Source: Adineta vaga
Taxonomy: Eukaryota; Animalia; Rotifera
Length of the DNA stretch: 64,000 nucleotides
Direction of reading: 5' to 3'
NCBI GenBank assembly: GCA_021613535.1
Contig: CP075492.1
Span: forward strand, 14,694,001-14,758,000
Part shown: positions 828 to 56,516 of the stretch, one piece after another
Numbering within the stretch: position 1 is the stretch's first letter
How the letters are laid out: each line of letters starts with the position of its first letter
The notes under the pieces: generated by a model
What the model was told of the DNA's origin: nothing
The model's database searches: none
Seen by the model: only the letters and a program-made list of their open reading frames with translations
Made by a program: the position numbers and the translations under genes

Positions 828-928
828 ACAAGTTGCATCATTGATTTGCTAAGAAACACGTGTTGTCGTTTTTCTTTCTCGAAGTAAAAGAATATATAGA
901 ATATTTCATAATCATTTTGTAATTTTAT

Positions 929-4936: not shown

Positions 4937-6195
4937 TCATTGATTTGTGGTAGCGACTGATTCACTGATTATGTTTTTGCTTCTCTCACGTGCATTAGTA
5001 ACGATGAGATCGATAACGTTGCTGTTGAGTGCTACATTAGCAAGAATAGCAATAGGGTTGACACTGTGTGTTATATCAGTCACGGTAGCTTGTGCGTTGA
5101 CCGTGTTAGTTTTATTTTGTTCATTCGCCGGAGTAACAATAGATTCGATTGCATTACCACCCAGTATCACATTAGCAGCGGTAATAATAGGATCAACCAT
5201 ACTATTATTAGCTGGTAGAGTAGTAGTATTATTTGTACATCTTGCACGTGCATTAGCAATGACTGATTCAATTGCATTACTACTAAGTGTTACATTAGCA
5301 GCAGTATCGATAGAACTGATTGTTGTTGTAGTCAGATCAGGTATTCTTTTCAAAGAAGAAAAAAAAACGTTGAGAAAAATATAAATGAATGTCAAAGAGT
5401 TATTACCCTTTGACTGATCCTTGTGATTGAATTTGAGTATTTGTTGCTGCTTGTGCATGAGAAGTAATGATAGTTGTCGTTGTTGATTCCAATAAATGTT
5501 GAGTTTCTTGTTGATTTATTTCCAGAATTTGATCAGTAAGATTATCAATATTTGTTTTATTCTGTAATTGACTTTCAATTAATGCATTCACTTTATCTGT
5601 ATTAGCTTGATTATTTAAAATATCGATTTGTTTTTTTGCTTCATTTAAAATCGTTTGTTGTTTAGTTTGTAGATCATGTTCTAAATCTGCTAATGTTTTA
5701 GCTTTAACAGCATCTAATGTTTGAATAACATTTTTTAATTGATTTTTATATTCATTATCAATAATTAAATGGCGTCGATTAGCCATAGATAGCAATTCTT
5801 CCTGTTGATGTTGAGTATTTGTAAGAACATCTGCAATTGATTTTTGAACCTATATTTACAATTGAATTAACAGAGAAAAATATATAAGACAAAATTACTA
5901 GTTCATTAATTTCTGCCACACGTGCTCGAGAATATTCATTTACTTGTGCATATGTTGTACCTAATTGTAGGAGTAAATTTTCAATGTTTAATTTTGTATT
6001 GATTGTTGCATTTGCTTGAGTTTCTGATGATATAACAGATTGTACTTGAACATTATCAGCTGCAGCCGATGTATGAAGATGTTCACTGGCAGTTGTACTC
6101 TGTTCTGTAACAGTTTGATTTTTGTCTGTAGTAGAATTTTGTTCGTCGGATTGTGCTGAAAAGGTGCCAAATAATGCATTAATAATCGACGACAT
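4937..6195 (-). CDS. Hydrophilic coiled-coil protein with three C-terminal ~22-aa repeats (about 382 aa, 3 exons)
   Basis: In-phase GT-AG introns 5898-5850 and 5406-5346 join ORFs 5779..6195, 5403..5795 and 4937..5458. Q/E/T/N-rich helical core. Repeats: ANVTLSSNAIESVI / ANVILGGNAIESIV / ANVALNSNVIDLIV. Confidence 0.75.
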
Positions 6196-6813
6196 TATAT
6201 TTTCTAATTAATAATTGAAAACAGAAAAATATTGGATCTAAAATGAATTTATATCTAAATTGTTAGATTGAGAAAAAAAAATATTCATAACATGATATAG
6301 GTTATAGAAATTCTCCTTTTTTCCATCTCTTTACATATTTTGTGCGCAATATGTTTATTGTTATTATGATGCTCTTAGGCACATGCTTTGTTTTTTCTTC
6401 TCTATTATAGAACATAGCTCTATATGCAATGTACCAAACGATAGAACTAGAAAGAAAAAAAAATGCTTATATGAATTATTTCCACTGATATTACTCAAAT
6501 GTGGACAGAAAAACAAGAAAATATTATCTATGTCGAGGAAATGTTGATGCACTGATTGATTGCTTCGTAATATGATATAACCGATAAAGGTTAAGAGATG
6601 ATGATGTTATTGCACAGTAAAACTTGATCAATGAAATTCGATGTTCTCTATATACAGTACAATACTCTGATTCTATTGACAATTTTTTTTAAGAACAAAT
6701 ATTCTTTCGTTTTACATATTTTTATTATAAAATGAGCGGTGTGTGAAAAACATTTTCATTTATAAGAACTCCGATCATTAAAATGCACTGTATAGTTAGT
6801 ACGAAGATGTAAT

Positions 6814-9113
6814 CTATTTCGAGTCTTGTTCTAGACGATTGATATTTGCGAGTTGTTCATCAATTTCCTTGGCTTGTTTCTCCCAGTTCATATCTTCATA
6901 GAGTTTTTTGGCTGCTGTCAAGTTTATACGAGCTGCTTCGAAATCACGTAAGCCAAGTTGAAGATCAGCTAGCTGTATGTGACTTTGAATCACAATGTTC
7001 TTTTTATCTTCGATCTCTTGCAAGTCGTGAAATGGAAGTATCTCATTGCTCTGTACCGTTGCATGATGTTTCAAAAGTCGATACTTCAATGCTGATGAAA
7101 GATCTTTGAGATTGTCTTTGTAGATGTTGGATATACGTTGATAAATGCGAGACAAATCTTCATGATTGTTCTGAGCGACGTAGATCTTACAGATTTCTTT
7201 GTAGTTTATCAGAGCCTCATCAAATATCTCCATCTCTTCCTGAAGCTCAGCAATATTCTTGTAGCATTTGCCCAATTGTCTATCGATAGGTGAGCAAAAT
7301 TTTAAAAGAGCTTGAAGTCGAAGTTGTTCGTAGTGTAGAGCAGATTTTTTGTCTTCCTTTTTATCATTTATCTCTTCCTTTTCTAAGTAAACCGTCGATA
7401 AGATCTGATATAACACTGCTTTTTGTCTTTCATTATCTGGTAACTGATTCAGAGTGGTTTTACAGATTAATATTGCAGCATCATATTGTTCCTGAGCCGA
7501 CTTGTCGTCCTCGAAATGAAAGTAATGCAGGCGACCTATTTTCAGATGAAGATTGGCAATTTCGAAACCATTGTTCTCAGGATATCTTTGCCAGATTGTA
7601 AGCGCTTGTTTGTAGTATGTCAATGCTGCTTTGTAATTTTCCCGACCATATCCCTCTTGATATCCACCCAATGCTCTGTATCTCTCGGCCTCCAGTTGTT
7701 CTCCCTCCGAAGTAAATAATTCATTGAGTTCATCGAAAATAGTGTTAATCTCCTCTTCTGGAGCATCTTTGCACACTTTTCCAGCAATGATACTAACACA
7801 CTCTTTCAGACTAATTTTTCTGTTCTCGAACGGCAGAATATAATCATCTTCCAATGTCAGCATCACCTTGATAATCTTTTCATCTTCACTGTAACTACTG
7901 CTCCGAAGACGAAGAAATGTTCCCATCATGAGAAGTATTTCTTTCTCGTTGGAGAATTCACTCAAATGAGAAATATCTCCGAAAGGTTTAGAGTTGTATC
8001 TGGCGTTTAGATTAATTTCTAGCAGCACCCGGACGTAACCTTCCATCACTGAGGATATAGGCGGAAGAAAACTGAGCGATAGACGCCGATCAAGCGATGT
8101 CGACAGAAAACTGGTTAACCTCACCATATAGGCAGACTTTAATGTTTCGACTTCATCCTCAGACATGATCTGTCCTCGAAACACTTGCACTTGTACGTTG
8201 TCTACGTTGGTGGTTTTGAATGTTTCGTGTTCCTTTTTTAATTGGAGAAATAAATCTTTAATGTAGTAGCCGAATGCAAACATTACTCTGACGTTGTACT
8301 GTCGATTAGCTTTGTTGATCAAGCGAAAAAAGAAGGTATCCCGTGTATACCACCAAACAGCCTTATCAGGAGTATACTCACGCTCGAACTCATCGATAAC
8401 ACGCAGTTCTCCAACTTTTCCATCGTAATAATTTCGTAGTTCAGTAGTGAGACGCTGGTGGCATACTTCTCTTGGATAAGGTAAGTGGCAGAGAGCATCC
8501 ATAAATATTACCCACCATGAAGCAGAACCAGATTCTGTTGTTCTATCTTGTTTGTCGAAGTTACCAAATACACCATCCTTCTCTTTTTCCAGATATCTCT
8601 TTACGTCACTATCGACTGCCTGAAGTAAGGATTTGTGATTCGTGTACACTTTCTTAACCTGCAGTAAAAAAGTGTCTTGCGTCGCAGAAAAAAACTAAGT
8701 TTAAATCTTACCTTTGTGTACGAACTCGGCCAGCTTTGAAGATGTTCACTATTCTGAGAGTAGACAAAAATTGAACGAATGTTTTGCAAGTGATGAATTT
8801 CTGGAATTAACTGCTTGCCGATGTTGTCTGAACAGACTAGAAAACACACGACATATTGTGACTCTTGTAGATAATGTTTACAGGAGTCTTGATTGTCAAA
8901 GAACTTGGTGTAGTCGACAATTTCACGTAATTTGGAGATGGTCAGGTCTCCATTTAAGCCATCGTGAACATGGTTATCGCACCAGACTAACTGATGTGAC
9001 TCAAGATTGAGTCGTTCACGGTCGAAAAGGCGAGATCGTATAGGGGAATTTCCTTGAATTGTATTATCGGCCGATATCATGGAAGATTGTGATGATCCAA
9101 CGAATGTGTTCAT
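6814..9113 (-). CDS. R-S-E class ADP-ribosyltransferase with TPR repeats and an N-terminal receiver-like alpha/beta module (paralog 1)
   Basis: Intron 8711-8659 joins the two ORFs in frame (…SYTK|VKKVYTN…). ART motifs VFRGQ, FLSTS and SNEKEIL. C-terminal TPRs (AALTYYKQALTIW, EALINYKEI). Start codon uncertain (9113 or an upstream Met). Confidence 0.85.
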
Positions 9114-10026
9114 ATTTTTTGTAGCCGTTAAATTTCGTCTTCTCAATAGTTTTAACTTTAGTTTGTCTCCATGGCTCGAGAAACATAACATTACTGTTCT
9201 GTGTATGTGCTGCTTTTTTTTCATCGCTTCATCATCATCTCCATGGTTTACGTTTTACGGAGAACAAGTAAAATAAATGTGTTCTCACAATTTCCACTTT
9301 TGTTTGTTTGTCGGAGAAGGCGTAAACACGTGTTTTTACGCGTCCAGACGTGCACATTTCAACACGTTATAAATGTATTTTTGTGAAAAACTTTCTCCGA
9401 TTGTGTCTGCCTGGCAAATGTTTGATTCATATATTTTCTTTCGACAGGTTCAACTAAAATAGCAAAAAGTAGAACGACGAGATTATTGTCAGAAACAACC
9501 ACCATGACGATTGTAGGGTGAACCCTATATCAACAATAAAAATTCAACAATGTAAACAAACGTCGTAATGCTTTATTATTATTATTCGATATTTTATTTA
9601 ACAAAACATAGTACACAATGATGCTATTAGTCAACACATGATGCAGTTTATTTACTGTCGTTGGTTAGTTTTTTAGACCTTTCATAAAGCGCAGAAGAAA
9701 TATTTATTAATGTATATTAAGTATGAATGGTTCTAATTTTGTTAGCCATGACAATAATTTCATCAAGTTTTTTTATGACTTTAGGTGGCATAAAATGACT
9801 TAAATTTGAGTTCTGATTGATTTAAATCAATCACTTCCTTTTCCCCTGATAACCAGCTTCTTGCATAAGAACAAATTCATCTGGAGGTATGATGAAGATC
9901 ACTTCTCTTCAGCTATATATCCTTTTTCATTATTAAGTTCCTATTTGACAAAAAAAGCAAAAACTTTATTAATTTAACAATATCAATCACAAAAAACGAC
10001 AATAATTCGTTCATTTCTTTTGTCTG

Positions 10027-13000
10027 CTAAATATAACTAAAGCAATGATTTCTCCTACAGCTTTGTCGCCATTTTTTCATTGACTTGACAAATTTTTCTT
10101 TGTACAGTGTTGATGGCAGAACGTACATGATAAAAATCAAAGTCGTAGGAATAAATGCCGTAAAATAACTCGAAACATATAACCAGGAGCTTTGAGATGC
10201 TTTTACACATCGAAACAATGATGAAATAATAATAAATGGCAATGTGAAGATGACCAATAGCAGAGGACCAATAAGTAACGGTTTGTGTTGATAAACTTGC
10301 TCTCTAAGATGCTGACGGCGACCTTTATATTTTCGAGCTGCTGCTTTTCGACGAACAATTGTATAAATAATGAATAGAGATGAGAAAATATTGATAAAAA
10401 ATGGTCCAAGCACATGAAGAAATGAAATTGCTGTTGTATAGATATATAAATTTGATGAATAAAGAGTAACACACCAGACACGATCTTCTTCAGTATCATC
10501 AAATAAATCACGAGAAAAGCATTCATAAATATTTGAACCGATAAGTAATAATACTAAAACAATCACAATACATCGAGCAGCTTTGATACTATGTGTTTTA
10601 TTGAAAGATATTCCTTTCGAAGTATTTATGGCACGTTCAATTGATACACAAGCATTCAACCAATTATTCATCCATGAACAAAATTTCAGTAAAGGTTCAA
10701 TCGACAAACATCCAAAACGAAGAACAGCACGATTTGTTTCTAAATTCATTTGAGAAAGTAAAACAAACCAAAATTTCATCATCAACACGGTAATAGTAAT
10801 CAGTGAAGTGATTGACAACATTAAAAGATAAATGCCACATCCAACTACACGCGTATCTCGCCGAGAAAATGTAATTAATGAAAGAATACTATTGACTAAG
10901 CCAATAACAAATAATATCATGGTAAAAAACATACTTAACTTAACCATTTCAGATTGATTACTTAGACGAATATTTGATCGAATTTCATATCGAAAGAGAT
11001 CATCAAGTGTTAATCCTATTCCTTTCGCATAAAATTGACATTGATTACCAAAGAAACAATCAATACAATTACATATAGTTGTAAGTGGACATATTGGATG
11101 ATCTTGTAAACATTGTCCATCATTGAGACAATGAACATTTTCTTTGCATTGAAAATCATGTTGATGATCAAATGCAAAACAATTAGCATGATGTTCTGTT
11201 GTACATAAACACATATACGATTCATCAAAGAAACATTTTAAATGAGGATTGTTTTGACATAAAGTATGATAATATTTAATTCGTTGAATTCTGAGTAATT
11301 TGATTTGTTTAGAATCGAGAAGTTCATTAACAGACGGACATCGTCGAGTGGAATCGATTGTTGTTGAGATGTTAGATGTTTCCGATTGTTGAAGCACAGT
11401 CAAATAATAGTTATTATTCGTTAGAATAAACACCATTTGAAATACTTGTTGGAGATAAAATGTCACATTTCTCTGCAGTGTAGTTATTTTTCTTAGTATT
11501 GTTTCGTGTGCTATTGGTGGCTCCCAGGGAATGTTTGAATAGATAAACGCTATCAGATATGATGATATTTTTCTATCATTGAGAGTGATATGTAACCGTG
11601 ACGTTGGAGATTCACATCTTTCTCCTCGAAATTCTTCGGGACATAAACATTCATAACTAGTATCAACCATTCGTTCATCAGTAACAACGCACACACCATT
11701 ATTTTCACAATAATTTATTGGACATGAATGTTTGAGCAAACAACGATTACCGAACTTTTCAAGAGGACAAATACAGATTGATCGATTATGTGCACGGTCA
11801 ATACAAATTGAATCAGATGAACAATCATCGCAATCAATTGAAATATGACACTGAGCACCAGTCCAACCTTTCTGACATTGACAAAAGAACTTTTCTTCAT
11901 TTATATACTTCACACAGATACCATGTTGACATTGAAGAGAACACAAACCAGAATAAGCAATATGATTCGATCCCAAAGTTAATAGAACAGCAAGTCGGTT
12001 CACTGGCAGAAAATTGAAAGGAACTTTGAAATACCAACTAGCAAGATATTCCACTGAAACCTTATCATAAACATCAATGTGAATACTGTAGTTTTTTGAA
12101 AGATGTTTTGGTCTTGTTGAATACGGAAGATATTTATCGAATGGTTGACCACATGTTATTTTAGCAATATAGATGATTTGTTCATACGATTGTATTTGTT
12201 GTTGATCATTATCATCATCAATTAGTTTAATGAAAATAGCAAAAGTATGATATCGAATGATAGCTGATAATATTAATGTAAGACTCACTCGTTGATTCTG
12301 ATATTGACATTGATTTCCATAATAATTTGGTGGACATAGACAAATTGTAGTGTCATTTTCATTTCCTAACCAAAGACGCATGGGTGAACCACGTGTGCAT
12401 TGCCATGATGGAGTATAAACGTGTGAAAATTTTTGTGGTGCATCATCAGCAGAAGTGATGATATTATTTTCGACTAATGGACAGGTTTCAGATGATTCTA
12501 ATGTGAATGGAACACGAGACATGGTACCAAAACGACAAAGAATATCTTGAACTTCAGTGAGATTATAATCAGTCCATTCTTCACATACGTCTGTATAATA
12601 TATTTCATTATGTAAATCACATAGTATAAAAGGTTCGATACATCTTGCGTCATTCAAACAACGAAAACTATATGAAATTCCACTAAAGAAATCTGCTACT
12701 CGACATAATTGTGGTTCATCTATTCCGCCAAGACAATCAACAATGCCATTTCTCACTTCATGTGCTGGTATACATATCATTGTATAATTATAGGGTGACG
12801 TACATTCAAGAAAACGATGAGAACAGTTCGATGGTCGACACTTTTCTTCATCTTTACCATTTTCACAATCCCAAAATCCATCACATCTTGTATAAATATT
12901 ATTGCAAGGCCAATATTCACAATCACTTTCATCTGTATAATTTTGTCCATTGATTATTTCAGGTGAAGTATCAATCGTTTTATCACATATTTGATTGAAA

Positions 13001-29569: not shown

Positions 29570-30079
29570 TTAATTCGGGACTTCAGTCGATAATCGATCT
29601 TCTCTAGTCAAATACGATTTGTTCATGGCTTTTAATCTTTGAAGCTCAGTACGCCATTGTTGAACATGTTCACCTATCTTACACACATTAGCTAAAGCCA
29701 ATCGACAAGTGAATTTCCAATTACTGTCGAGATCAAACATAATGCTCTCTTGTACTTTTGAATCATGTAATGGATTTTCTTCAGGTCCATTATGTTCTGC
29801 ACATAAATATATTAATTGGACATGTTTATAGCCATATATTGCTTTAATAATTGATGATTTATTGGAACAACAAATACAAACGATTCGTTGAAGATTAATA
29901 TCACTTCTAATCGATAGATCTAAAGCATCTAGACGCTGAACATAAGTAATATCAGGATCATTAGGTGATCGTTGATGTACTTGATCAGGATCATTAGGTG
30001 ATCGTTGATGTACTTGATCAGGATCATTAGGTGATCGATGATGTACTTGATCAGGATCATAGAAAAGAAAACTAGACAT
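29570..30079 (-). CDS. Hypothetical protein with 11-aa tandem repeats and a stand-alone receiver-like module
   Basis: 169-aa ATG ORF with DPDQVHQRSPN x3. RIVCICC…IIKAIYGYKHVQLIYLC resembles the N-terminal module of the ART-TPR proteins. Confidence 0.5.
   Translation of the reverse strand: MSSFLFYDPDQVHHRSPNDPDQVHQRSPNDPDQVHQRSPNDPDITYVQRLDALDLSIRSDINLQRIVCICCSNKSSIIKAIYGYKHVQLIYLCAEHNGPEENPLHDSKVQESIMFDLDSNWKFTCRLALANVCKIGEHVQQWRTELQRLKAMNKSYLTREDRLSTEVPN
29951..30060. repeat. Coding minisatellite, 33-bp unit x ~3.3
   Basis: ATCAGGATCATTAGGTGATCGTTGATGTACTTG repeated head-to-tail with one substitution. Confidence 0.95.
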
Positions 30080-30757
30080 TATTAATATTGATTAGATTCT
30101 TATCAGACAAATGTATATATATATATGTCAGTTGGATATTTCCTGGGGATACAAGTATGACTCAAAAAAGGATTTGTCATTGTATAATAGTAATATTCCT
30201 TCTACAGAATAAAGTGAAAAGGAACTGCGTATCGATTGATATGACGTCTGAAAGAAATTTAGTTTGAATAGAACCTTAGTACTTAGTATAATATTGACAT
30301 AAGAACTGATATACATTTCAACATAATCGAGTTTCTTTTTTACAAGTTATTTATATTAATAAGTGTCGAAATATCGAGAAATGAAAAAAGTAATTATTAA
30401 TAAGAAAATATCTTCCTATCGACTAATTTCATTTGATAAATTCTATATTTTGTTGCATAAAAAAGTCTTTTGAACTTTCCTCTCAACTATTATATAATTT
30501 TGTGCCTCGGTCGGTGCGGAGCATCATAAATAATCGATCAAATCCTAGGAATATTTTCTACAAGGTCAACATCCTGTGGGTATACACAGTAACGACAAAA
30601 ACACCGTCAAAATATCATCTTGTTGACGAATGAATCGATGATTAAGCACGCCATGCAATGAGTCACTTCAACGATCTGTTCTTTGATCGATTCTGTATGT
30701 TAATACTTCAAACAAAAATCACAAGAATAAACATTCAGGATTTTCTTTTACAAAAAA

Positions 30758-32720: not shown

Positions 32721-33698
32721 CTACCGAAGTAAGAAAAAAAGAATTGACAGAAAAAAAGCAGAAAAGTTTTTCATAAAAGGATTTGTGTTGACGAAAGCAT
32801 TCGAGTTGGAAACAGTAGTTTTCATCCAATCAATAATAGCATCAGCAACTTGTTCAGGTTGCTCAGGGAATAGTGCATGACTAGCCGCTTCGATCACTCT
32901 TACAGTGACAAGACTGTTGAGTACGTCTTTCAATTCATTTCGTGACCAAAATGGTCTCCATGGATCTTCAGCAGCTTGTAAATCAAGAATAGGAGAATGT
33001 GACACAGGCCACCATTCAGTTTTCGATGGAATTTTTCCTGCACTACGATAAGCAGGACGAAGTTCAGGATGCCAACCTGTTAACCAAACTGAAGCATTAC
33101 TGTTAGGTGCAAAGAAGGCATGATACAAATGGACGAGTCGTTCATCTTCTGGGATTGTAGCATTCGCTACACGTTCAAGAGAGACAGTTAGTGACGAATC
33201 ATTCTGATATTGTTGTTCACCTGCAGCGACTACAATTCCACGAACTAGGTGTGGATGATCAAGATCAGTAACACGTGCCACATAATGACCAAATGCATGA
33301 CCAATAATTACGGCAGGATAACCTCTACCTAATTCACGTATTGTAATTGCTATATCATTGGCTAAAATATGTAATGTAAGATTTTCCAATGAACCACGAC
33401 TATTCCCAATACCACGTGGTTGCGGACGAAGAACCAAATAACCTGCCTTAGCAATACGTTCAGCAACATGATTAAATTCATTACTACCTCGTTGTGACGA
33501 TGGAAGAATGATCACTGGTGGAAGTCCATCTTCACCATCGATAATTACATCAAGTGTTAAATCAATTTGAGGTGTTAGTAGAACACGACGACGTTGTTGT
33601 GAAATCGTCGTATTTAAATTTATTTCAGATATTTCATGAGAATTTCGTATGAAGACGACGTAGATGGTAAAAAGAATGAATAACCATTTGACTTCCAT
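32721..33698 (-). CDS. Bacterial-type alpha/beta-hydrolase-fold protein with signal peptide and GPI-like C-terminal tail, intronless
   Basis: Motifs LRPQPRGIGNS, IIGHAFG (nucleophile elbow with Ala), QAAEDP and ASHALFPEQP. Hydrophobic N-terminus; C-terminus ends SNSNA…FSAFFLSILFFLLR. Confidence 0.85.
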   Translation of the reverse strand: MEVKWLFILFTIYVVFIRNSHEISEINLNTTISQQRRRVLLTPQIDLTLDVIIDGEDGLPPVIILPSSQRGSNEFNHVAERIAKAGYLVLRPQPRGIGNSRGSLENLTLHILANDIAITIRELGRGYPAVIIGHAFGHYVARVTDLDHPHLVRGIVVAAGEQQYQNDSSLTVSLERVANATIPEDERLVHLYHAFFAPNSNASVWLTGWHPELRPAYRSAGKIPSKTEWWPVSHSPILDLQAAEDPWRPFWSRNELKDVLNSLVTVRVIEAASHALFPEQPEQVADAIIDWMKTTVSNSNAFVNTNPFMKNFSAFFLSILFFLLR

Positions 33699-33849
33699 AA
33701 AAGAATAAAACAAAGTGTCTGATCAATTTATTCTTTTTCTCGAAAAGAGCAAATATCGACACGATATGCAACATAAAGGTCGGATTATAAAACCTATCGT
33801 ATTTTTCTTTATTCTTTCATTGACATAAAGAAATTTCATAGAAATGAAG

Positions 33850-37312: not shown

Positions 37313-40300
37313 TTAGAATTTTTTTTTAATTTTTTCATATCTCTTAATAGGATCATTTGTTCTTCGATGTGTTCCATAGTAATGAATAAGTTCGGTTTCG
37401 TATTTTGCACGATCGGATCCCCATTCTGCCGGGTTTTTTGAAAGTTTCGGATATTTAGTAAACAGATGTTGTAACGCCTTTCCAAAATCATCTTTAACAT
37501 ATCCTGGTGCATTAACATGTTGATCGAGAGCTACAGCTTTTCCCAAATTTGATTGTAAATAATCGTTGATTGTATAAGACTTAAAACCAGTTGGTTTTAT
37601 TGGTAACACTTCTTTATTCAAACGATCAATGAAATCAACTACTTGCATTTCTTGAAATTCTTTATTACTGATTGCGTTAACCAGTACTTCTAATGGTTTT
37701 GACGGGGCTGTTTTAATTTTCTTCTGAAAATCTGCTCTAATAAAGTCTTTCAATTCTTTGCCGGTTAGTTCATTATAAGACATTGAATGAACTCCCTTAT
37801 TTTTTGTAACTGTCCAGCCCTGTGCTTCAAAAAGCTCTTCATAAAGTTTGGGATATTGTGTTTTGAATTTCCATACTTGTGTCGGAAATTCACCATTACC
37901 TTTAGGATTGATTGTTTTTTGCATTGCACCAGCTGACGCTATTTCACTATCGTAGGATTGAACACTTTCTAAAGTTCCTTCAGTTGTACTCATTCCACTT
38001 ATTATCTTTTTATCATCAATAGTCGCTTTTTTTCGTTCAATTAAACTATTCCAACCCGTGTAATCAGCTAGATCAGTAGTACCTGAATATTCTGGACCAT
38101 ATTGAATTTTGTTGTTCTTTTCATACTTGACACGATTAAATTGGATGTTTTCATTTGATGGGGCAGTTGGAGCGAGATTATTTTGATAAATCATGGGATA
38201 GAGTGGACCACGATTAGATGATACTATAGAAGAAAACGAAGAAATACTTGATTAAAATAAAATTGCATAGTATCAACTTTGGTAAAATTTGAGTGAGGGT
38301 GTGGGTATAATACTTCACGGTGATATCATGATACGTTTACGAATATTTTAAGGGAAATATATACAATCCTATATCGCTAGGTATAATTTTTATGAAAAAG
38401 TACAGGTTTTTCACCACTCTGATATTATCATTTAGAATACTGAAGTTAGTAGCTTCGATCTGTTACTAAAAATTTCAATTACCGTCGCGAAAATTCCATG
38501 GATAGAACTTGTTGAGAAGATCATTGTTATAATTCAATAAAGGCTGCATTTTAATGCCACCTCTTCTTGGATAATAGTTTCCAGAGTTTCCCATCAAGCG
38601 TAAAACAGTTGTTGGAATGTAGTAACATGATGACAGATTTGTAGAATTGTGATTTGCAATTATTCCCCTGCCAACTGATAATTGTGCAGATGCAGGTAGC
38701 TCATTGGTTTTATTACCAACGTCATATCCAGACTGAGACATTGTTTTATACAGATGTGATTGCGTTGGAGGAGATATTTTCATACGTTCGGTAATACCTA
38801 TAAAAACAACATACAGTTGTATGAAAGTTCAAACAATTTGAAATATGAACATCAAATCAATTCCATATTTTAAATGACTACTGGAAGACGTATGCTAATC
38901 TAATTGATCCTCTCTTTTCTTTCGAAAGTAAGATAAATTACAAACCTGCAATAATCTCGTTAACAAGAATATTTTCAGCATCCGGACTATCATTTGCAAG
39001 ATAGGTATGAATAGCGGTTTTACTGATTGCATATACAGAAAAATTGAATGCAGTTGAAATTGCTTCAGCAATCTCTTTGATCTTGTCATTTTGAATTTTA
39101 ATCAATTGTTCACGTACATGATGACGAGCAGCATCAAGATTTTGAATAGTATGCTTATTGGCAAGTACAAATCCTTGATGTAAGATTAGTTGATCTAATG
39201 TACTTTCAACACGTATATGTGTTACGTATGGCCATGCTCCACCAAAAACTTGACTTCTCAAATTACTGGAAGTTAAAAGTTGAGCAATTGACTGAATGAA
39301 TGAAAATAATTAATTATGCTTTATGTAAAAGAAAAGAATTGAAGTCGTCAAGTAACACTTACATCGAACGATGGTGGTGAAAGACTCTTTCGTAATTCAC
39401 GATAATGATGTTGAAAAATTAAAGCGATTCCAGTCAATTTACTTAATTCTCCTAGACGTAGTAGTTCGGGAAAGTAATTGCCAAATTCATTATAGTTTTC
39501 CGTCACTACTGTTGTAAAATGATCATATCGTGGAGAAGTGCCACCTATGTGCGTTTCAATGAAGCCAGTTTCATTGTTCTTTACTTGTCTGTAACGTGAA
39601 TTAGAAAACAAACATAGTGAATTTTTCCATCCACTCGAATATATTACCTGATATAACTTTCATATTTCACTTGCATATTCGGTGGACCGAGAACATAAGT
39701 CGTAACATCGTCTTGGTCTATTCGGTTATATTTGATTGGACCCGATTCAATCCATATTCTGGTGGCAGAAAGAAGTTCATTGTCTTCTAGTTCGTCATTA
39801 CTGAATAAACGTTGAAATAAATCACTTGATGGAGCCGATGAACTATTCTCACGAATAGGTCGGACATCGAAAGGAAATCGAGCAGACATCTCTGTTCGAA
39901 AATTCATACTCTTCAACCATAGATCTGCATGGAGAAGTGTTGAGAGAAAATCTGTGTCAGTAAGAGCATCATGTGGTAACCATGTAGCTTTTTGAAATGG
40001 ATGTGGAAGCTCAGAAGCCAGAGGAGGATCCAATGAGAAAGATGCACCTATTTGTAATTATTTGAAAGTATAATCAAAAGAAGAATTTCATATGCATACC
40101 TGTAATGCCTTTTTTCATTACCATTTCCACGTCATCAGAATTGAATAAAGCAGGTTTATCTTCTGCTTCCATTAAATTGAACCAAAAGGATCCATTTTGA
40201 TGAAATGAGATTCCTCCAACAGCAGAATATACCTTTCCATCCTTTGAAAGACATAATTGGTATTTTCAACTATTATAAACTGTAGATTCATGAAGATTAC

Positions 40301-41162
40301 TTACGTTAGGTTTTGGTACGTTCAGTGGTAAGCCAGCTAATCGGAAGCCATCTTTATCACGTGGTAACCATTTCCATTGAAGGAGACGTTCTACGTCAGC
40401 CATTTCCCAACCATATGTTTTCAATAAATGTTGTCGTACACGATTTTGTATTTGTTTAAAATTAGTATCATCTCCTTTCATATACTTATTAAAAGCACGA
40501 CGATAATAGTTTAGAGCAGCAGTATCATTTGGATGAATCAAATTCGAGTCCTCTTCACTAACGCCAAAGTTCAAACCATTAATAGAAATCGATAATCCAC
40601 TCTAGATGAGAAAAAGAATTTAGTAAGTCTTGAGAGTGTGGATATGAATTAAACATCATTCTCACTTCCTCATTCATGCTCGTAATTTATAAGAAAAAAA
40701 ACTATACTACCTTATTTCTTGGTGTCGGAGTAGTTTTGTCATCAAGTTCGAAATCAATTTTGTCAATGATTGGACGTATTGTTGTAGTTTCTAGAAAGCA
40801 TAATATGAAAGCTTTTCAACTGATTTGTTCAAAAAACATCTATAGTATTTACCTTGAAATTGATTGGTTGCTAAAGCAGTGGTACATATGCTTGCACATT
40901 CTTCAGAAGAATAATCTGTTTTCTCTTGAGATGTTTCATATGACTCTTCAGAACATTCACATAAATACTGATCTTTTGTATCGCTCGTTGATTGTGTTGT
41001 TAACTCGACTTCTGACGATTGTTCATCGGATTCAGATGGCAAACAATCTATACCAACACAATCATTATTTTCTGAACTCTCTATTGAAGATTCTGGTAGA
41101 ATAAACGATTGAGCTGACACAAACAGGAAAATTAGAATAATGCCAGTATCCAACGACTTCAT
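37313..41162 (-). CDS. Large secreted multi-exon protein: signal peptide, acidic Cys/Ser linker, conserved central region, and a C-terminal bacterial-type putative peptidoglycan hydrolase (lysozyme-like) exon
   Basis: In-phase GT-AG junctions traced at 40852-40791, 40710-40602, 40304-40242, 40099-40048, 39647-39589, 39362-39292 and 38482-38224 (…FRD|VSSNRGPLYPMIYQ…). One junction (~38945-38800) is not resolved. The last exon has EGTLESVQSYDSEIASAGAMQKT and ALDQHVNAPG. Confidence 0.65.
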
Positions 41163-43232: not shown

Positions 43233-45693
43233 TCAGTTCTCAAGCAATGTTTCTGCATATTTCAGTTTTTGTTCCTTTTCCTTAATTATACAATTGCAAT
43301 CTTCTAGCTCTTTATCATCGGATTTGCATGGTTCTTGTAATGGTCGTTCGTTCGATGCATACACCAGACGACCATCTTTAATTACCAAACGAACATCTCT
43401 GAGTATCAAATATTTTCTCTGTTGAACATAAGCTAATCCTTGATATAAGTGTTTGTAAGCTAGAATGTATTGCTTCATATTTAAGTAACAATCAGCCACG
43501 GAGAAATGACTTTCTTCGATAGATCTCATCGAAAATCTATTTGGAGTAGAATTGTTTTCAGCAAAAAGTTTCTGACAGCACTCATGTCGTAGTAGTTCAT
43601 AGTGTAAGGCGGATTTGAAATCGTGCATATGCTCCATGTAGATTGTGACTATCTTTCTATAAAGATCCATCATACGATCCAGTAAGTCTGCTTGCATATT
43701 GTTTAATGGATAGAATTCGAGTGCTTTTTTATAGTGAATCATTGCATCTTCGTAGTGATACAACACTGCATATCTATCTGCCAAATTTTCATAGTTCCAG
43801 GCAAGATCTTGTGATTTGGATGGAATTGGATGGTCTTTTACAAGTTCTATCCAAAGATGTTGGTACTCGATTGATTTCAATCCATATTTGTCTCGATCAG
43901 TTCTAGTTAAATCCTTATAGACACGGGATAACTTTGGCACAATCTCCATTTTTTCATAATCGTTAGTTGAACATTTCTTCAGAGCTAGCTCATAGAAACG
44001 GGCAGCTTTCTTCAGAAAATCAACGGAAAAATCCGACAGATGTGGTGGTCCGCACTCGTAGAGTTGTGCTCTAGCAAAGTAATTTTCGGCAATATCAAAT
44101 GAGCAGTTGAGTTTATCATCATCATCATCAACTGCTGAATACTCCTCCCAAATTGCAAGAGCCTGCTCGTAGTAGGAGAACGATGACGAATAGTCATGCT
44201 TCTTTTCTGTTGGATCATCGCAATGCTGAGCTTCCAGTTCAGCAAGAGCATAAAGTTTCACAGCCTTAATCCACTTTGCTTCTCTCGGATAAATATTCAT
44301 TAGAATATCGAAGACGATGGTATCCTCGAGTGTGGCAATCAGTTCTGACATATCTCTCAGTGCGCTCAAGCAGTTCTTCAGAGTTTTTCTTTCTGATCCA
44401 GCTTCTAGTTGTGTATCCCTGAATATATCGTAGTGTGATTGTAGTTTTAGTTTTACTAGCCAGTACGGCGGCAATTCATGAAGATCGTTTCGTTCTTGTA
44501 TACTGTGAAGAACGAATCTGGTATTCACCATAAATAAAGTTTCCCGTTCTTCAGGAAAGAAACTAAGTGATGTAATGTCTGCAAAGACTGCAGTCAAGTG
44601 TCGGTAGTCTGTTTCGATTTCAAACAGAACGCGATTGGCACCTTGTTCACACTCTGAAGCAATTAGAAATCCCTTGGCTATGGAGCAGTCACTTGATGTA
44701 GAGAACAGAGCGTTGTTTTGAATCGAACATCCAGCTGCTAATTTTTCGAGATCTTTATCTGAAAAAACTTGACCACGATATAATTTGACAATGGATCTTG
44801 CAGTATATTTCTCTTGTTCTTGTTTTAGCTCTCGATATAAATCTTGAAGAAAAGATCCGAACAACAAAAGCACTTTAATATTTCGCTGTCTTAACGCTTG
44901 ATTCAGAATACCAAAGAATATACTTGATCCAGAATACCACGAAACAGCTCGTTTCTTAGAAGGAAAGTCTATCTTAAATTCATCAATAATTGCATCCGTA
45001 AAACCGTGGTTCTTGAGCTCGGCTACAAGTCGATGATGGTAATTTTCAGGATACGGTAAGCTAATCAGTACTTTGATAATATTATGCCACCACAACTCAA
45101 AATTATCGTCGATACTAATTTGATGCCTAGGATTTTGTTCACTGAATATACCAGCTTTTTCGTGTTTGAAATATTCCTGAACATCTTCCTTTATCTTCTT
45201 CAGAAGATCGTCACGTTCCGTGTGGATAGAACAGACTTTCTAAAAGTAAATTCAAATTTGATGATTTAAAATAAAAATTCCTATAATTACCAACCTTGTT
45301 TGCAGCTATGAACTCGAGTGTTCTCGTATCAAGTACTTTACTCTTACCATAGATATACACTTTCCATATATTTGTTTTTCTGAACGGTAACAACTCGGGA
45401 ATAATATCCTGTGCGTATCTAACAGAGCAGACAAGAAATGTAAAAACATCATGACATTTTTCAATATGCTTCAAGCAATATCTCCAGTGATCAAAAGCCT
45501 TTGTATAGTTGACGACTTCACGAAACTTCGTAAGTGTAGAGAAAATTTCTTCCTCATCTTCGAGTTCAGACAATTTGATATCCGTCCATAGTAACTGATA
45601 AGATGTAAGATTTACATCGTGCCGATCGAAATAAGGATGCCATTTCGGTAGTAGACCGACGAGATGAAAATTGTGTGTGCCGCTGGATGCCAT
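43233..45693 (-). CDS. R-S-E ADP-ribosyltransferase with TPR repeats (paralog 2)
   Basis: In-frame intron 45294-45240 (IAANK|KVCSIH). Motifs LYRGQ, LFSTS and PEERETLF; TPRs (YYEQALAIW, AMIHYKKALE). N-terminus FDRHDVNLTSYQLLWTD aligns with FDRERLNLESHQLVWCD of paralog 1. Confidence 0.85.
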
Positions 45694-48556: not shown

Positions 48557-50801
48557 ATGATAGATAAACACGGAGATGAAGAAGCCATGGCCATCAATTC
48601 ACCAGAATTAAAACCACGAATACTCTCGAAGTAAGTGCAATTCATATGATGATCGACAGTAAAAACTTAATATCCATTGTATTATTCATAGTTCACAATG
48701 GTCACGCACTTTACGCTCGTTTGAGCGTAAACATTTTTATGCTACTTTACTCGTATTGGTTATTGTTGGTAGTGTTCTGGCAGTAGCAATTCCTTATTAT
48801 CGAGTCTACAATAAAGGTAAATCAACGACGAAAACATTCGTCCTGGATTTTCATTAAGAGCGTGATATTTCTAGGCAGTTTCAACAATGAACAGGAAGAC
48901 ACTAATTCGGCAACGCAAGTGGAAGAATTAGAAAATGAAACACCAGAAACATTTGGATCTTTGAATGATGAACCGAACAAGGATCAGCCATCACCACGAT
49001 TACGATCAGCTTCATCTTATGTTAGTATTTGAGAATTATTTGTATTTAATTTAGTTCTTCTATAATCTAGCGAAAACATAAATCACCTGAAAATGTTGGT
49101 CACATGAATGTTTATATTCGTAAACCGACTAATGAGGGTACTCAACGACGACCTCATCAACTTCGTTTTCCCGTTGCACGTTACAATCGTCGACGATTGC
49201 GTCTGTATTTTCATACGGGTTAAGTTCATTTGATACAAACAGTCTTTTTTTTAGCTTTTCACGGTCCATTTCTAAGTTTTACTCCTCGCGTTCCAATATT
49301 TGTCGACCGGTTAACACGACAAACTCTTATATTCTCACCGTCAGGAGGTACACAAAAAATTGTAATTTCAAATATCTTAGTCAATAATTTAATTCTTTTA
49401 GTCTATATTTTACCACCAGTGATCAATTTTTATGGTAAAATGTTCTCAGTTGCTGAACTCATTGCATCCGGTTATGCTAGTCTGGTCAGTAGTGGTGCTC
49501 CGCCCGTCAGTCCTATTAATATGTTATCTTATTATCAATCTATTCCATGTTGGTTGATAGTCTAAATTTGTCTTTTTTTTCATTGAATTTATTCTGTTCT
49601 TCACATAGTGCTTGGTCCTGGTATTCCGATGATTAGTCCAACTACAGGTAGCTTTGATGGTGGCATTCGAACAAATTATAAATCATTCAAAACTCGAAAG
49701 TACTCTAGATCCTACTCTCAAATCGATGATTCGTATGAATCAGATGAACAAGACGAAGACGAAGACGAAGAATACGATAACGGTTATTATAAGAGAAGGA
49801 AATCATATCCAAGATATAAATATAATACACAAAAACCAAAAACACTAACAACAACTACTCGTTCTTCAGGTAGGACTCAGTTGAAGACGTAATCATGAAT
49901 CTCCTTTTCTCATTTAGATACATGTTCTTCTGATTGTGACACTGGTTGCACAAAGACATGTTTACGATCTAATGCCAAATGTCGCCCGAAATTAAAAACA
50001 ATATCCATTGTAACTGCACGTGATCAAGCACCATTCATATCTCAAACTGGCGACGATGCACCAGTTGGATTGGATGTTGATTTGATGCAATCTATTGCTG
50101 ATTTATATCAAATAAAATTCGTCTATCAATATGCTGAATTTTCACAATTTATTTCTATGGTTCAGAATGATATCAATCTTATTTCCATTAGTACTCATAC
50201 AGATACAATAGTACGAGAAGAGTTTGTTAATTTCGCTCATTTCTTCAAAACTGGTGTTGGATTTTTTACATTATCAACTTATACAGAAACTATTAATGGT
50301 CTCAGTGATTTATGTGGTAAAACAGTGGCAGTATTAACTAGTTCGATTCAAGAAATTGATGTTCAAAGTCAGAATACAAAATGTGGATCAAATCCTATAA
50401 CAATAATATCAGTTGCATCATCTACAGATAGATTAAAAGCAATTGAAGATGGTACAGCTGATGTAGCTCTTGATGATCAAGCTGTCATCGTCGCTATTGT
50501 TCAAGAATCAGAAGGTAAATTGAAAGAAGTTGGTCAACCATATGATATTCAACCTTTTGGAATATTATGTAATAAAAACAATAAACAATTATGTTGTGCA
50601 TTGGTTAATGCAATAAATTATTTGATTAAAAAAGGTACTTATGAAGATATCTTGAAGAAATATTCTTATTCTTTTAAAAATAACGGTATTTGTCCATCAC
50701 AAATCAATTTAAATGGTACATCATGTTCGTCAAAATGCACACCAAGTGATAGTGAATGTGAACAAAAGTTAGCTTCTACAGAAACTCAATTACCATCATG
50801 A
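48557..50801 (+). CDS. Type II membrane protein ending in a bacterial family-3 (polar amino acid) solute-binding domain, multi-exon
   Basis: Exon 2 TM segment FYATLLVLVIVGSVLAVAIPYY; several short exons follow. The last exon (from ~49919) has Cys-rich TCSSDCDTGCTKTC, then APF…GLDVDL…DTIVREEFVNF…DLCGKTVAV…GTADVA…AINYLIKKGTYEDILKKY. Internal junctions approximate. Confidence 0.7.
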
Positions 50802-52504: not shown

Positions 52505-53518
52505 TTATAATTGAATTTTCTCAGTACTAACATCGAAATTTCTGCTAACAAAAACAAATGAATTCGGTGGAATTAAATGCCAATCTTCTGCCTTGTATGT
52601 ATTTGGTTCACTGGCAACAATTGCATGTTTTCCATGTTTATCAGTTTCATATATTGATTTTCTTCGACTATCTTTTCCATCGGGATGATCTGGATACTTT
52701 CGATTAAGTGTTGGACCAGCTGTAGTTGAATAATATAATGATGGTGGCTCAAGTTGATCCGTTGATGCAAATCGTGTTGCCAGTAATTGACAACCATCGC
52801 TAACAGCAAAATTTAAAGCACTATGAAGAGAAATTTCCTCATTGTTGTTCTTAGTTTCATCAATAAGAGCAAGAACATCGCGAAGAGTTTTAATCATTGC
52901 TTCTTTGAGTTGTTCAATTTCTAATTCTGCATCCCAATCATCACCTAAATATGTAAAGAAAAGAGCAGCAACATGTTCTGTATCGGTTGTTCCAAAGATA
53001 TTTCCATACGCTTTTGTTGATAATTTACTTAATAATTTTACTTTAATTTTTGAGAAATTAGCGACATATCCATTATGCATGAACATATAACGACCAAATA
53101 TAAATGGATGATTGTTTGTTTCAACAATCGGTGAACTTGCTGTACCAGCACGGATATGTGCAAACACACATTTTGTTGCTGTATGTGCACATAGAGATGC
53201 AAGATTAAGATCATTGATAGGTGGACGTGTATTTCGATATACACATGGTCTGTTAATATAATCATCATTGAATTCAGCAGCGACACCCGTATAAAAACCG
53301 ATACCAAATCCATCGACATTAGTAAAATGATTCGGACCACGTTCATCAGATGCTACACCAGAACTATACATTTTTTTACCCAGATGTTCACCATAACTGA
53401 TATGAAGATTTGGAAGAAAGTGTACATCGATTTGTTTAACGATAGAATGTTTTGGTTTAATAAGAATATCTTCAAGAAGAGCAGGCTCTTCACCAATATA
53501 TGCAAACCATCGACACAT
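52505..53518 (-). CDS. Class II glutamine amidotransferase (Ntn hydrolase; fungal DUG3 / EgtC-like), intronless
   Basis: N-terminal MCRW (Cys2 nucleophile); motifs NVDGFGIGFY, FAHIRA, NNHPF, FMHNG, GTTDTEH and IVASEP. Confidence 0.9.
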   Translation of the reverse strand: MCRWFAYIGEEPALLEDILIKPKHSIVKQIDVHFLPNLHISYGEHLGKKMYSSGVASDERGPNHFTNVDGFGIGFYTGVAAEFNDDYINRPCVYRNTRPPINDLNLASLCAHTATKCVFAHIRAGTASSPIVETNNHPFIFGRYMFMHNGYVANFSKIKVKLLSKLSTKAYGNIFGTTDTEHVAALFFTYLGDDWDAELEIEQLKEAMIKTLRDVLALIDETKNNNEEISLHSALNFAVSDGCQLLATRFASTDQLEPPSLYYSTTAGPTLNRKYPDHPDGKDSRRKSIYETDKHGKHAIVASEPNTYKAEDWHLIPPNSFVFVSRNFDVSTEKIQL

Positions 53519-53764
53519 ATTTGTTTCTGTTTTGCTTCATCGATTGTTATTTTGTATACATTTAGATAATATTTCTTTCCTGACGATATTTTGCAAATAA
53601 TACGATGTCTATGATTCATTACTTCTTACTATTTGCTCACAGATGACGTGTCAATAATTGCACAAAGGTATGTAATTTCTATTAGTCATACCCTTTTTCA
53701 CTCGTTCTATCGTATATAAATAGGGAGAAATAGTCACAATCAATATATTCATAAACTGTTGATC

Positions 53765-54863: not shown

Positions 54864-55160
54864 ATCATTCATCGTTTCTTATGATTGAACTGAAAGTATC
54901 TTTGTATATTTAATAAAGAAAATTAAAATGAGTCTATCATTGCACATAAAAATCAGTTAAAATAATCATACGACAATGTATAACACGTGGACAGAAATTT
55001 ATCTCAATCTAAACATTGATTCATTTTTTTAAAAAATATCAAATAGGGTTGCATGTCATTATTATAGTTTTCTTTTTTCATTCTTATCATTTTATTTTAA
55101 CCTATATAAAAAAAGACGTTGATGTTCTACAATAACACATCTATTAAAAGAAAAACAGTA

Positions 55161-56516
55161 ATGACGTCTTGGCTTGTTTCTCCATCGTTAGCGACAGGAC
55201 AAAATCGTCGAATTGAACTTCCTGGAATTGATCTGTGGATCATTGCACGTGTAGATAAAGTATTTGTCTATCCATCTGAGTTAAATATCGATCGTTTCAA
55301 GGATGCACTTGCTCGTACTCTTTCAATATGGCCTCTTATTGCCGGTCGTTTTCTTCTTCTTGACGGTGATCAGTATGTGATTGAAATGTCAGACAATCCA
55401 ATACCAGTAACATATGCTGATACTAATAAACTATCTGCTTGGCCCAATGATTTATATATCGTCTCAGAATTACATCAGAATCCACTTGAACCATATATTG
55501 ATGAAGTACAAGTTGCCAAACTAATTTCTGGTTCTTTAGACGAACCACTTTTTCGTTTGAAATTAACATGTCTTATGCAAAGTGGTGAATGGATATTGGG
55601 AGTAAGTTGGGCACATATATTGGGCGATGCTGGTGCGTTATTCCATTATTTAGGTACTATTTCGCGTATATATCAACAACTTGAACCTCTTGAACCAATG
55701 CCTATCTTTGAAAGACGTCTATGGTTAGAAGATGAAGTCGATTCATCGTTTCTACCATTAATGAAACATCTAACTCATGCTGGGCCATTAGGAGAAATGT
55801 TTCAATTATTTGGTAGTTGGAAAGATACACATGATCATGTTAACATTCGCTTTTCAGGAGATCAACTAGCTAAATTACGTGAGTTAGCCGGTGGAAGTCA
55901 AGTTACTATTCAAGATTCACTTTCTGCTTACATTATTCTTACTCTAAATAAACATTGCTATAACAATGATAATCGACGTCATATTTTACGAGCTAATACA
56001 ACAGTTAATTTCCGTGGTGTTTCTGATACAATTGCTCCAATTGGACATGTTTCTAACGCTATATTCCAGATGTTATCGAATAATTTTGAAGATCCATTAT
56101 CTTTAACAAATATAGCCAAAACAATTCGTCGTTCAATTGTACAATCACGTAATTCGAAATTTCTCGAAACATGGTTGGCCACTGCTGATGGATTGCTACG
56201 AAAAATTGCGCGAGACAATCTATTAGCAAATTGGGATCAATTTTCAAATGAAATCATAATTAATTCGAATTATCGATATGATTGGGTGAAGTTTGTTGAT
56301 TTCGGATATACAGATCAATGTCGTGTCTATACAGCATGGACAGGACCATTGTATTTACGTATATTTCGTTTGAATCCTGTAAGAGATAATATGACATGGT
56401 TACCTCGTGATCGAAATGGAGCTGAAGTTGCTTTTCGAATTGAAAAGAACATGAAAGATCGTTTTATTCATGCTTGGAAAAAAGATATTGAAGAGAATTT
56501 TACTAATATTTGTTAA
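55161..56516 (+). CDS. CoA-dependent acyltransferase of the BAHD/fungal Tri101-like 'Transferase' family, intronless
   Basis: LARTLSIWPLIAGR, an HxxxD motif (AHILGDA) and a C-terminal VDFG. Confidence 0.8.
   Translation: MTSWLVSPSLATGQNRRIELPGIDLWIIARVDKVFVYPSELNIDRFKDALARTLSIWPLIAGRFLLLDGDQYVIEMSDNPIPVTYADTNKLSAWPNDLYIVSELHQNPLEPYIDEVQVAKLISGSLDEPLFRLKLTCLMQSGEWILGVSWAHILGDAGALFHYLGTISRIYQQLEPLEPMPIFERRLWLEDEVDSSFLPLMKHLTHAGPLGEMFQLFGSWKDTHDHVNIRFSGDQLAKLRELAGGSQVTIQDSLSAYIILTLNKHCYNNDNRRHILRANTTVNFRGVSDTIAPIGHVSNAIFQMLSNNFEDPLSLTNIAKTIRRSIVQSRNSKFLETWLATADGLLRKIARDNLLANWDQFSNEIIINSNYRYDWVKFVDFGYTDQCRVYTAWTGPLYLRIFRLNPVRDNMTWLPRDRNGAEVAFRIEKNMKDRFIHAWKKDIEENFTNIC

Follow-up and report, generated by a model that had tools for sequence, protein, structure and literature searches.

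The window analyzed here is a 64,000-nucleotide (nt) stretch of Adineta vaga DNA, and all positions are given within it. The gene of interest lies on its minus strand and comprises nine exons, running from 41162 to 37313. All eight introns have GT..AG boundaries, and their lengths in gene order are 62, 109, 63, 52, 59, 71, 148, and 259 nt. The joined exons contain no internal stop and encode 1008 amino acids (aa), the same as the database protein P0021 (A. vaga I4U23_015610). Exons 1 to 8 encode what is referred to here as the carrier. Exon 9 encodes a tail that appears to contain a lysozyme-superfamily domain derived from bacteria.

Exon 1 (40853 to 41162, minus strand like every feature of the gene; aa 1 to 103), whose splice joint is seen in contigs, encodes a signal-peptide-like hydrophobic N terminus and then a low-complexity stretch rich in Ser, Glu, and Cys; the counterpart of this region in a structure model of the Rotaria protein has a predicted local distance difference test score (pLDDT) below 50. 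Exon 2 (40711 to 40790; aa 104 to 130), placed by the gene model and contigs, encodes a linker rich in Thr and Asp. The conserved carrier core begins in exon 3 (40305 to 40601; aa 131 to 229), continues through exon 4 (40100 to 40241; aa 230 to 276), has its most conserved part in exon 5 (39648 to 40047; aa 277 to 409), and ends in exon 6 (39363 to 39588; aa 410 to 485), which contributes P450 and R454. Exon 7 (38946 to 39291; aa 486 to 600) encodes a helical region, and the carrier ends with exon 8 (38483 to 38797; aa 601 to 705). Ahead of the tail is the motif YIPT…RGGI (38553 to 38621; aa 660 to 682; positions derived from the exon model), the local form of a family motif, WVPA…YGGV.

Intron 8 (38224 to 38482; phase 1), which is also documented in contigs, marks the junction between carrier and tail. 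At 259 nt it is the longest of the eight introns, the others being 52 to 148 nt. Exon 9 (37313 to 38223; aa 706 to 1008) spans 911 nt with the stop and encodes a short linker followed by the domain. An initial annotation, made from the DNA letters, had described exon 9 as an intron-free block joined in the correct phase to the upstream gene and rich in Lys, unlike the upstream exons. Both descriptions hold: Lys makes up 11.9% of exon 9 residues (36/302) versus 4.9% (28/575) in exons 3 to 8 (Fisher p=3e-4), and the isoelectric point (pI) is 9.2 versus 5.2 for the upstream exons. The motifs that it quoted are likewise all present in exon 9. It had also regarded the exon as a captured domain. The tail is indeed the terminal exon, but bacterial homology begins only about 25 to 40 codons into it, and the first ~20 residues form a low-confidence linker. 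Exon 9 is not foreign in base composition, because its GC content at third codon positions (GC3; 0.22) does not differ from that of the upstream exons (0.24). Repeats or transposon-like ends in its flanks were found only as chance-level pairs.

The gene is spliced in A. vaga, and exon 9 is joined to the carrier. Eight of the 16 listed sequencing runs were examined for contigs over the gene; no run is on record as RNA, and splicing was read from the contigs themselves. Contigs from five of the eight runs (X2, X3, X4, X7, and X8), which come from two studies, skip the 259 nt of intron 8. In run X8 a single 2960-nt contig spans 37323 to 41105 with all eight introns removed, which provides the link between exon 9 and the upstream gene that the initial annotation had called for. 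Run X1 has a 15-nt loose end at intron 8, run X13 covers only 37323 to 37544 (222 nt of exon 9), and run X5 reads through the introns unspliced, intron 8 included.

Searches of Pfam, PHROGs, NCBIfam, and PDB sequences yielded no family name for exon 9; matches to DrrA_P4M and an anti-LPS factor were below threshold and were rejected. Protein searches with exon 9 gave 19 matches among 822 candidates and 35 among 2752. The rotifer matches were Adineta and Rotaria proteins with 62 to 66% identity, with one further match at 76%. Outside rotifers, all named protein matches were bacterial, with overall identities of 33 to 52%, and a scan of bacterial genomes found 162 relatives of the domain, with identities up to 53%. 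Eighty of the 162 were retained as loci, and in every one of them (80/80) the domain forms the end of the open reading frame (ORF). The N-terminal partner domains of the bacterial relatives include LysM, M15, M23-like, and SH3 domains. Fusion of a carrier with a tail of the exon 9 type was also found in A. ricciae and Rotaria sp. Silwood1. P0020 was left out of an unrooted tree of 129 domains because of its shortness; in this tree, a single clade unites P0004 with the four named rotifer sequences, with a Shimodaira-Hasegawa-like approximate likelihood ratio test (SH-aLRT) value of 100. The bacterial nearest relatives, the monophyly of the rotifer sequences, and the integration in host DNA support the conclusion that the exon 9 domain was horizontally acquired from bacteria, the origin that had initially been proposed. 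A metagenome scan returned one 1.1-kb locus, which lacks the junction.

The bacterial relatives belong to a recognizable genomic setting. Among 31 of the 80 loci, picked for genus spread and with upstream genes scanned in 30, type VI secretion system (T6SS) markers were located upstream in 22: VgrG in 16, DUF4280 in 4, TssD/TssR in 1, and a Clp-type ATPase with gp25 in 1. One plasmid locus is annotated as vgrG-effector-hypothetical-PAAR. In the loci read, the relatives are cargo effectors rather than VgrG fusions. The next downstream gene encodes a hydrophobic, signal-peptide-like N terminus in 31/31 loci, versus 80/255 of the other ORFs there, and 11 of these 31 downstream genes have a lipobox-like pattern. 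An effector followed by an exported immunity protein is the usual layout for effectors that act in the periplasm. Binding was weakly supported for one effector/partner pair, which had a predicted-binding score of 0.52 against 0.08 for the best control, with contacts agreeing to at least 78% and a partner pLDDT of at least 74. In calibration, 51/78 solved and 2/108 mismatched pairs reached the mark, but just 5 of the solved pairs scored 0.60 or below, as did each of the 4 mismatches that passed.

One example is locus L011 of Chryseobacterium sp. OV279 (5215 to 10994), which contains vgrG, a gene for a DUF4280 protein, a 557-aa family member, and a 530-aa protein, with an exported partner after each of the four. 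The 557-aa protein, encoded four ORFs past vgrG and without a Pfam domain, shares 47% identity with exon 9 across 290 aa. The designation of the bacterial relatives as T6SS cargo effectors is supported by their linkage to genes for VgrG, PAAR-like proteins, or the T6SS core. The expected vgrG/PAAR neighborhood was thereby supported, and the downstream genes are candidate immunity genes. The initial suggestion that the relatives are associated with T6SS or phages stands in its first part, but the connection to phages is weak, consisting of two Vibrio phage records with 26% identity to the domain. One viral structure model also matches it (E 3e-11). PseM, VgrG3cp, and a Salmonella survey gave no link to the exon 9 family.

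The structure model of the exon 9 domain has a mean pLDDT of 93.6. A VIA structure search of 48,161 chains returned six at Z of at least 8, all of them chitosanases or the VgrG3 C-terminal domain (VgrG3-C). Glycoside hydrolase family 46 (GH46) chitosanases top the list (Z 10.7, with a root mean square deviation [rmsd] of 3.5 over 199 aligned residues; 10.5; and 10.2), followed by the T6SS effector chain 4NSO (Z 8.7; rmsd 3.9, 169 aligned), a GH80 chitosanase (Z 8.6), and the T6SS effector chain 4NOO (Z 8.5). Matches below Z 8 are mostly T4-type lysozymes. We take 4NSO and 4NOO to be VgrG3, in line with the sequence match of a Rotaria tail described below. Exon 9 had no match to the GH46 Pfam family at E≤1 and no PF21277, NCBIfam, or profile match to the VgrG3-like family. 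The models support a two-lobed lysozyme-superfamily fold for the domain, in the branch of GH46, VgrG3, and T4 lysozyme, as had been expected.

The predicted catalytic segment (37919 to 37981) contains Glu787 (37981 to 37979), Asp797 (37951 to 37949), Ser802, Gly804, and Gln807. Glu787, Asp797, Gly804, Gln807, Lys808, Thr809, Asp902, Asp939, and Asn943 are invariant in 129/129 domains, and position 802 is Ser or Thr in 129/129. The E…D…G..Q layout noticed in the initial annotation is therefore a property of the whole family. In this superfamily, a Glu closes a helix, after which a beta-hairpin with G-x-x-Q/G bears Asp and then Ser/Thr. The model has this hallmark, with a helix at 68 to 80, then E81, and strands at 95 to 104 (domain numbering), and the fold predicts a catalytic role for Glu787 and Asp797. 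The spacing D-x4-[ST]-x-G-x-x-Q is common to the exon 9 domain and the VgrG3-like tail.

A search with aa 130 to 600 of the carrier found 11 proteins among 7989 scored candidates. A family profile built from five carriers matched, at E≤0.001, the representatives of 423 clusters, of which 150 were listed, and sources named among 20 members looked up were Rotaria, Adineta, Didymodactylos, Hydra vulgaris, the foraminiferan Bolivina, and Tupanvirus. D318, K322, P335, and W375, all in exon 5, are present in at least 147 of 148 to 150 aligned rows, and the near-invariant charged residues of the core are D318, K322, E329, R373, and R454. The WVPA…YGGV-type motif was found in 92/162 family proteins examined, and 89 tails of at least 60 aa follow it, in 37 clusters. 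Pfam names could be given to tails in 6/43 representatives scanned: GIY-YIG (twice), AHH, HicA, alpha-kinase, and FNIP repeats. In addition, the motif is followed in P0081 by a lysozyme of the goose type (E 1e-33), and P0094 has a Cys/His domain like 4HZ9 (E 2e-9), which we take to be the amidase Tae3; the two terms co-occur in a literature listing. Many family members start with DnaJ or FYVE domains.

With its conserved N-terminal part and diverse C-terminal domains, the carrier is, as judged from its sequence relationships, a member of a cross-kingdom family resembling polymorphic toxins and not a conventional metazoan gene. The initial description of a secreted animal protein accordingly needs revision in its second part, but its first part is in keeping with the hydrophobic N terminus, and the protein with exon 9 is likely secreted. 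A strongly hydrophobic N terminus was present in only 5/98 long members starting with Met, which marks the secreted branch as a minority. A quick tree of 38 carriers places the secreted rotifer forms in one clade (99) with three lineages, two with a tail of the exon 9 family and one with a VgrG3-like tail. They group with P0081 and P0094 (SH-aLRT 90), with long branches involved. A second secreted lineage (P0059, P0067, and P0251) has N-terminal tandem Cys-rich repeats of the C-x-C-x-C-P-Y-G-S type instead of a Ser/Glu-rich stretch.

The Rotaria carrier model is confident over about aa 150 to 630. Foldseek gave no match to it at E≤0.001, the best VIA match (Z 5.8) involved the helical part only, so that the core was hardly probed, and ESM Atlas offered no usable match. 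A scan bearing on a suspected resemblance of the core to DUF1598 matched 0/151 genomes but also 0/14 controls, and the carrier profile matched none of those 151 genomes. No immunity-like ORF of at least 70 aa lies within 1.5 kb downstream of the gene in the window.

Comparison of carriers from different rotifers suggests that the tail has been replaced. P0057 of Rotaria magnacalcarata, compared with the A. vaga protein exon by exon, is 47 to 70% identical over exons 3 to 8 and 12 to 19% identical over exon 9. P0251 (A. ricciae) and P0232 (Rotaria sp. Silwood1) are 62 to 73% identical to A. vaga over the exon 9 domain. The P0057 tail belongs to PF21277 (T6SS_VgrG3-like_C; E 5e-53), and its sequence resembles those of 4NSO and 4NOO (E 1e-26); a profile comparison of this tail with the exon 9 family gave no match. 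This 917-aa form with the VgrG3-like tail, present in both R. magnacalcarata and R. socialis, is that of 9 of the 15 members listed for a 23-member cluster. The junction is exactly where alternative gene models break: P0221, P0237, and P0238 continue as FPK-GN; P0220 starts just upstream of VDIF; and P0228 (Silwood1) ends YD-GN, like the read-through FRD-GN in the window. Because the models break at the boundary between carrier and tail, a phase-1 intron is inferred at the same place in all three lineages. The different lysozyme at the same junction in gene models of a second rotifer lineage supports exchange of the last exon between carrier lineages, and with it the proposal that the domain was added by exon shuffling.

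In our view, the gene probably encodes an antibacterial muramidase that is secreted and borne on a polymorphic-toxin-like carrier with an exchanged last exon. A T6SS cargo-effector domain would have been acquired once, before the split between Adineta and Rotaria and without its immunity gene, which would be dispensable because the animal has no peptidoglycan to protect. The domain would have become the last exon of a carrier from the polymorphic-toxin-like family, and the sister carrier lineage would have received a VgrG3-like lysozyme instead, via the phase-1 intron at the same place. Secretion would bring the product to the gut or the body surface, where Glu787 would serve as the general acid, assisted by Asp797, in hydrolysis of the glycan backbone of bacterial peptidoglycan. 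Such a Glu/Asp mechanism is that of GH46, T4 lysozyme, and VgrG3. The basic tail (pI 9.2) would favor binding to the bacterial envelope. The carrier may present, deliver, or release the tail, although the manner is a guess.

Several observations weigh against this interpretation. Lytic activity is a prediction, and the nearest solved folds, including the three best matches and the one at Z 8.6, are chitosanases; Foldseek against PDB gave no match at E≤0.001 for exon 9 and ranked GH46 chitosanases first and second. Position 786 (37982 to 37984), directly before the Glu, is Thr in A. vaga and Asn in 128/129 domains; runs X2, X4, and X8 show no alternative letter there. Nine of the 31 bacterial loci have no T6SS marker among the genes scanned, and the tree of 129 domains points to no particular donor group. 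The case for secretion comes from hydropathy only. The carrier tree supports no particular branching order of the three secreted lineages, nor an order of the swap, and the Rotaria fusion and intron position come from protein gene models only. Finally, the exon 9 and P0057 tails align with a local score of 48, a value reached by 9/200 shuffles. This slight likeness may be of the kind that distant fold relatives show.

The structural matches raise the alternative of a chitosanase, or a glycanase of the chitin type, ancestral or retuned, that acts on fungal walls or food. Bdelloids upregulate horizontally acquired glycoside hydrolases under fungal attack, according to a study whose main text mentions neither lysozyme nor chitosan (PMC11258130). 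GH46 (Z 10.2 to 10.7) and GH80 enzymes are the top matches, and the Asn-to-Thr change beside the Glu could mark an altered specificity. However, the bacterial family adjoins vgrG and genes for periplasm-bound partners and carries peptidoglycan-type domains, and the alternative tails of this carrier clade likewise belong to wall-hydrolase types. Furthermore, the Gln that ends the motif matches the VgrG3-like tail, whereas GH46 has Gly. We consider a chitosanase unlikely. It is also conceivable that a lysozyme attached to a carrier acting as a secretion or anchoring scaffold digests eaten bacteria. Bdelloids are generally known to eat bacteria, and spliced contigs in runs of at least two studies fit routine expression. 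This nutritional role shares its enzymology with an antibacterial one, but the nuclease, HicA, and kinase tails elsewhere in the carrier family typify conflict systems, and replacement of one lysozyme by another would fit an arms race better than digestion. A nutritional role seems quite unlikely.

The Asn-to-Thr change, which is unique to A. vaga, might instead mark a weak or dead enzyme that works as a sensor binding peptidoglycan; the active part would then be the carrier core, whose near-invariant Asp, Lys, Glu, and Arg might build a separate site. The Glu, Asp, Ser, Gly, and Gln of the domain are intact, however, and the Asn is kept in the other four rotifer-clade copies compared, which makes a sensor very improbable. 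Identities of up to 53% with bacterial proteins could suggest contaminating bacterial DNA or a misjoined gene model, but spliced contigs cross all eight GT-AG introns, the fusion is also present in A. ricciae and Rotaria sp. Silwood1, and GC3 matches that of the host exons. The chance of an artifact is negligible overall, and for A. vaga the full-length spliced contig already refutes it.

An antibacterial muramidase on an exchangeable last exon could be part of something larger. Eukaryotes and a giant virus may share a polymorphic toxin system not yet described, often with the arrangement DnaJ-FYVE-helical core-WVPA/YGGV-toxin, whose bdelloid branch would be a secreted antibacterial platform. 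At one fixed intron, this platform would take on unrelated bacterial T6SS wall hydrolases as interchangeable final exons. We judge this wider proposal as apt to fail as to hold.

Other ORFs in the window were also of note. Five long uninterrupted ORFs, at 49899 to 50801 (plus strand), 52505 to 53536 (minus), 923 to 2092 (plus), 32721 to 33722 (minus), and 55110 to 56516 (plus), have SBP_bac_3, GATase_4, FAD_binding_3, alpha/beta-hydrolase, and Transferase domains, and they are likely further horizontally acquired genes. Two TPR-containing ORFs on the minus strand (43233 to 45239 and 6814 to 8694) each follow an overlapping ORF of ~200 aa, and the former has a weak ADP-ribosyltransferase match (E 0.003). 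The minus-strand ORF at 29570 to 30091 encodes a short tandem peptide repeat, DPDQVHQRSPN, in about three copies.

Foreign genes are common in bdelloids, and thus the transfer alone is modest news. The surprise lies in the apparent exchange of unrelated wall hydrolases at a single intron of an unnamed cross-kingdom carrier, at which bdelloids have two different families of lysozyme. This provides a testable case in which horizontal transfer plus exon exchange could build a variable animal arsenal, and it is relevant to an old question, namely how bdelloids keep up with microbes. Two unnamed families also emerge: T6SS effectors with a predicted lysozyme fold, and the 423-cluster carriers, whose tails list candidate eukaryotic toxins. 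No published account of this gene or carrier was found in a search that had subscription journals outside its reach.

The closest known counterparts differ from the A. vaga gene in instructive ways. The C-terminal lysozyme of Vibrio cholerae VgrG3 (PF21277; 4NSO and 4NOO) resembles the exon 9 domain in fold class, in the D-x4-[ST]-x-G-x-x-Q spacing, and in T6SS context. It is unlike exon 9 in its 12 to 13% structural identity and lack of a family match; the Rotaria paralogue P0057 carries a true PF21277 member. VgrG3 is described as having lysozyme activity, and fusions of wall-lytic domains within bacterial effectors are documented, in PMC11893102. GH46 and GH80 chitosanases are the best structural matches, yet with 8 to 13% identity, and in contrast to them the genomic context of the exon 9 relatives points to a periplasmic bacterial target. 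T6EC11, the "moon toxin" of Chryseobacterium sp. OV279, has been reported as a peptidoglycan hydrolase that is toxic in the periplasm and whose homologs lie mainly in Flavobacteria and Gammaproteobacteria (bioRxiv 10.64898/2026.09.28.754971). The 557-aa relative of exon 9 in the same strain fits the selection rules given there, and its 530-aa neighbor fits them too. Whether the 557-aa protein is T6EC11 is a toss-up, and we treat the match as a lead and not as support.

Bacterial polymorphic toxins (Zhang et al. 2012, PMC3482391) share with the carrier family a conserved N-terminal part, a motif, and variable C-terminal toxin domains. The carrier family differs from them in its eukaryotic and viral carriers, in its intron-based junction, and in that no ORF resembling an immunity gene was seen beside the gene in the window. 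Animals have captured wall-lytic toxins before. Dae2 of ticks is reportedly a stand-alone small gene. The known captures (Dae2 and GH25 lysozymes) are reportedly of whole genes, and the A. vaga case is set apart by a captured piece that is the final exon of a carrier open to reuse. Dae2 is likewise a T6SS wall toxin gained by an animal and used against bacteria (10.1101/2020.04.10.036376). However, Dae2 is an amidase, whereas the A. vaga domain would be a glycan hydrolase, encoded by the final exon, behind a 700-aa carrier, and apparently exchanged between lineages.

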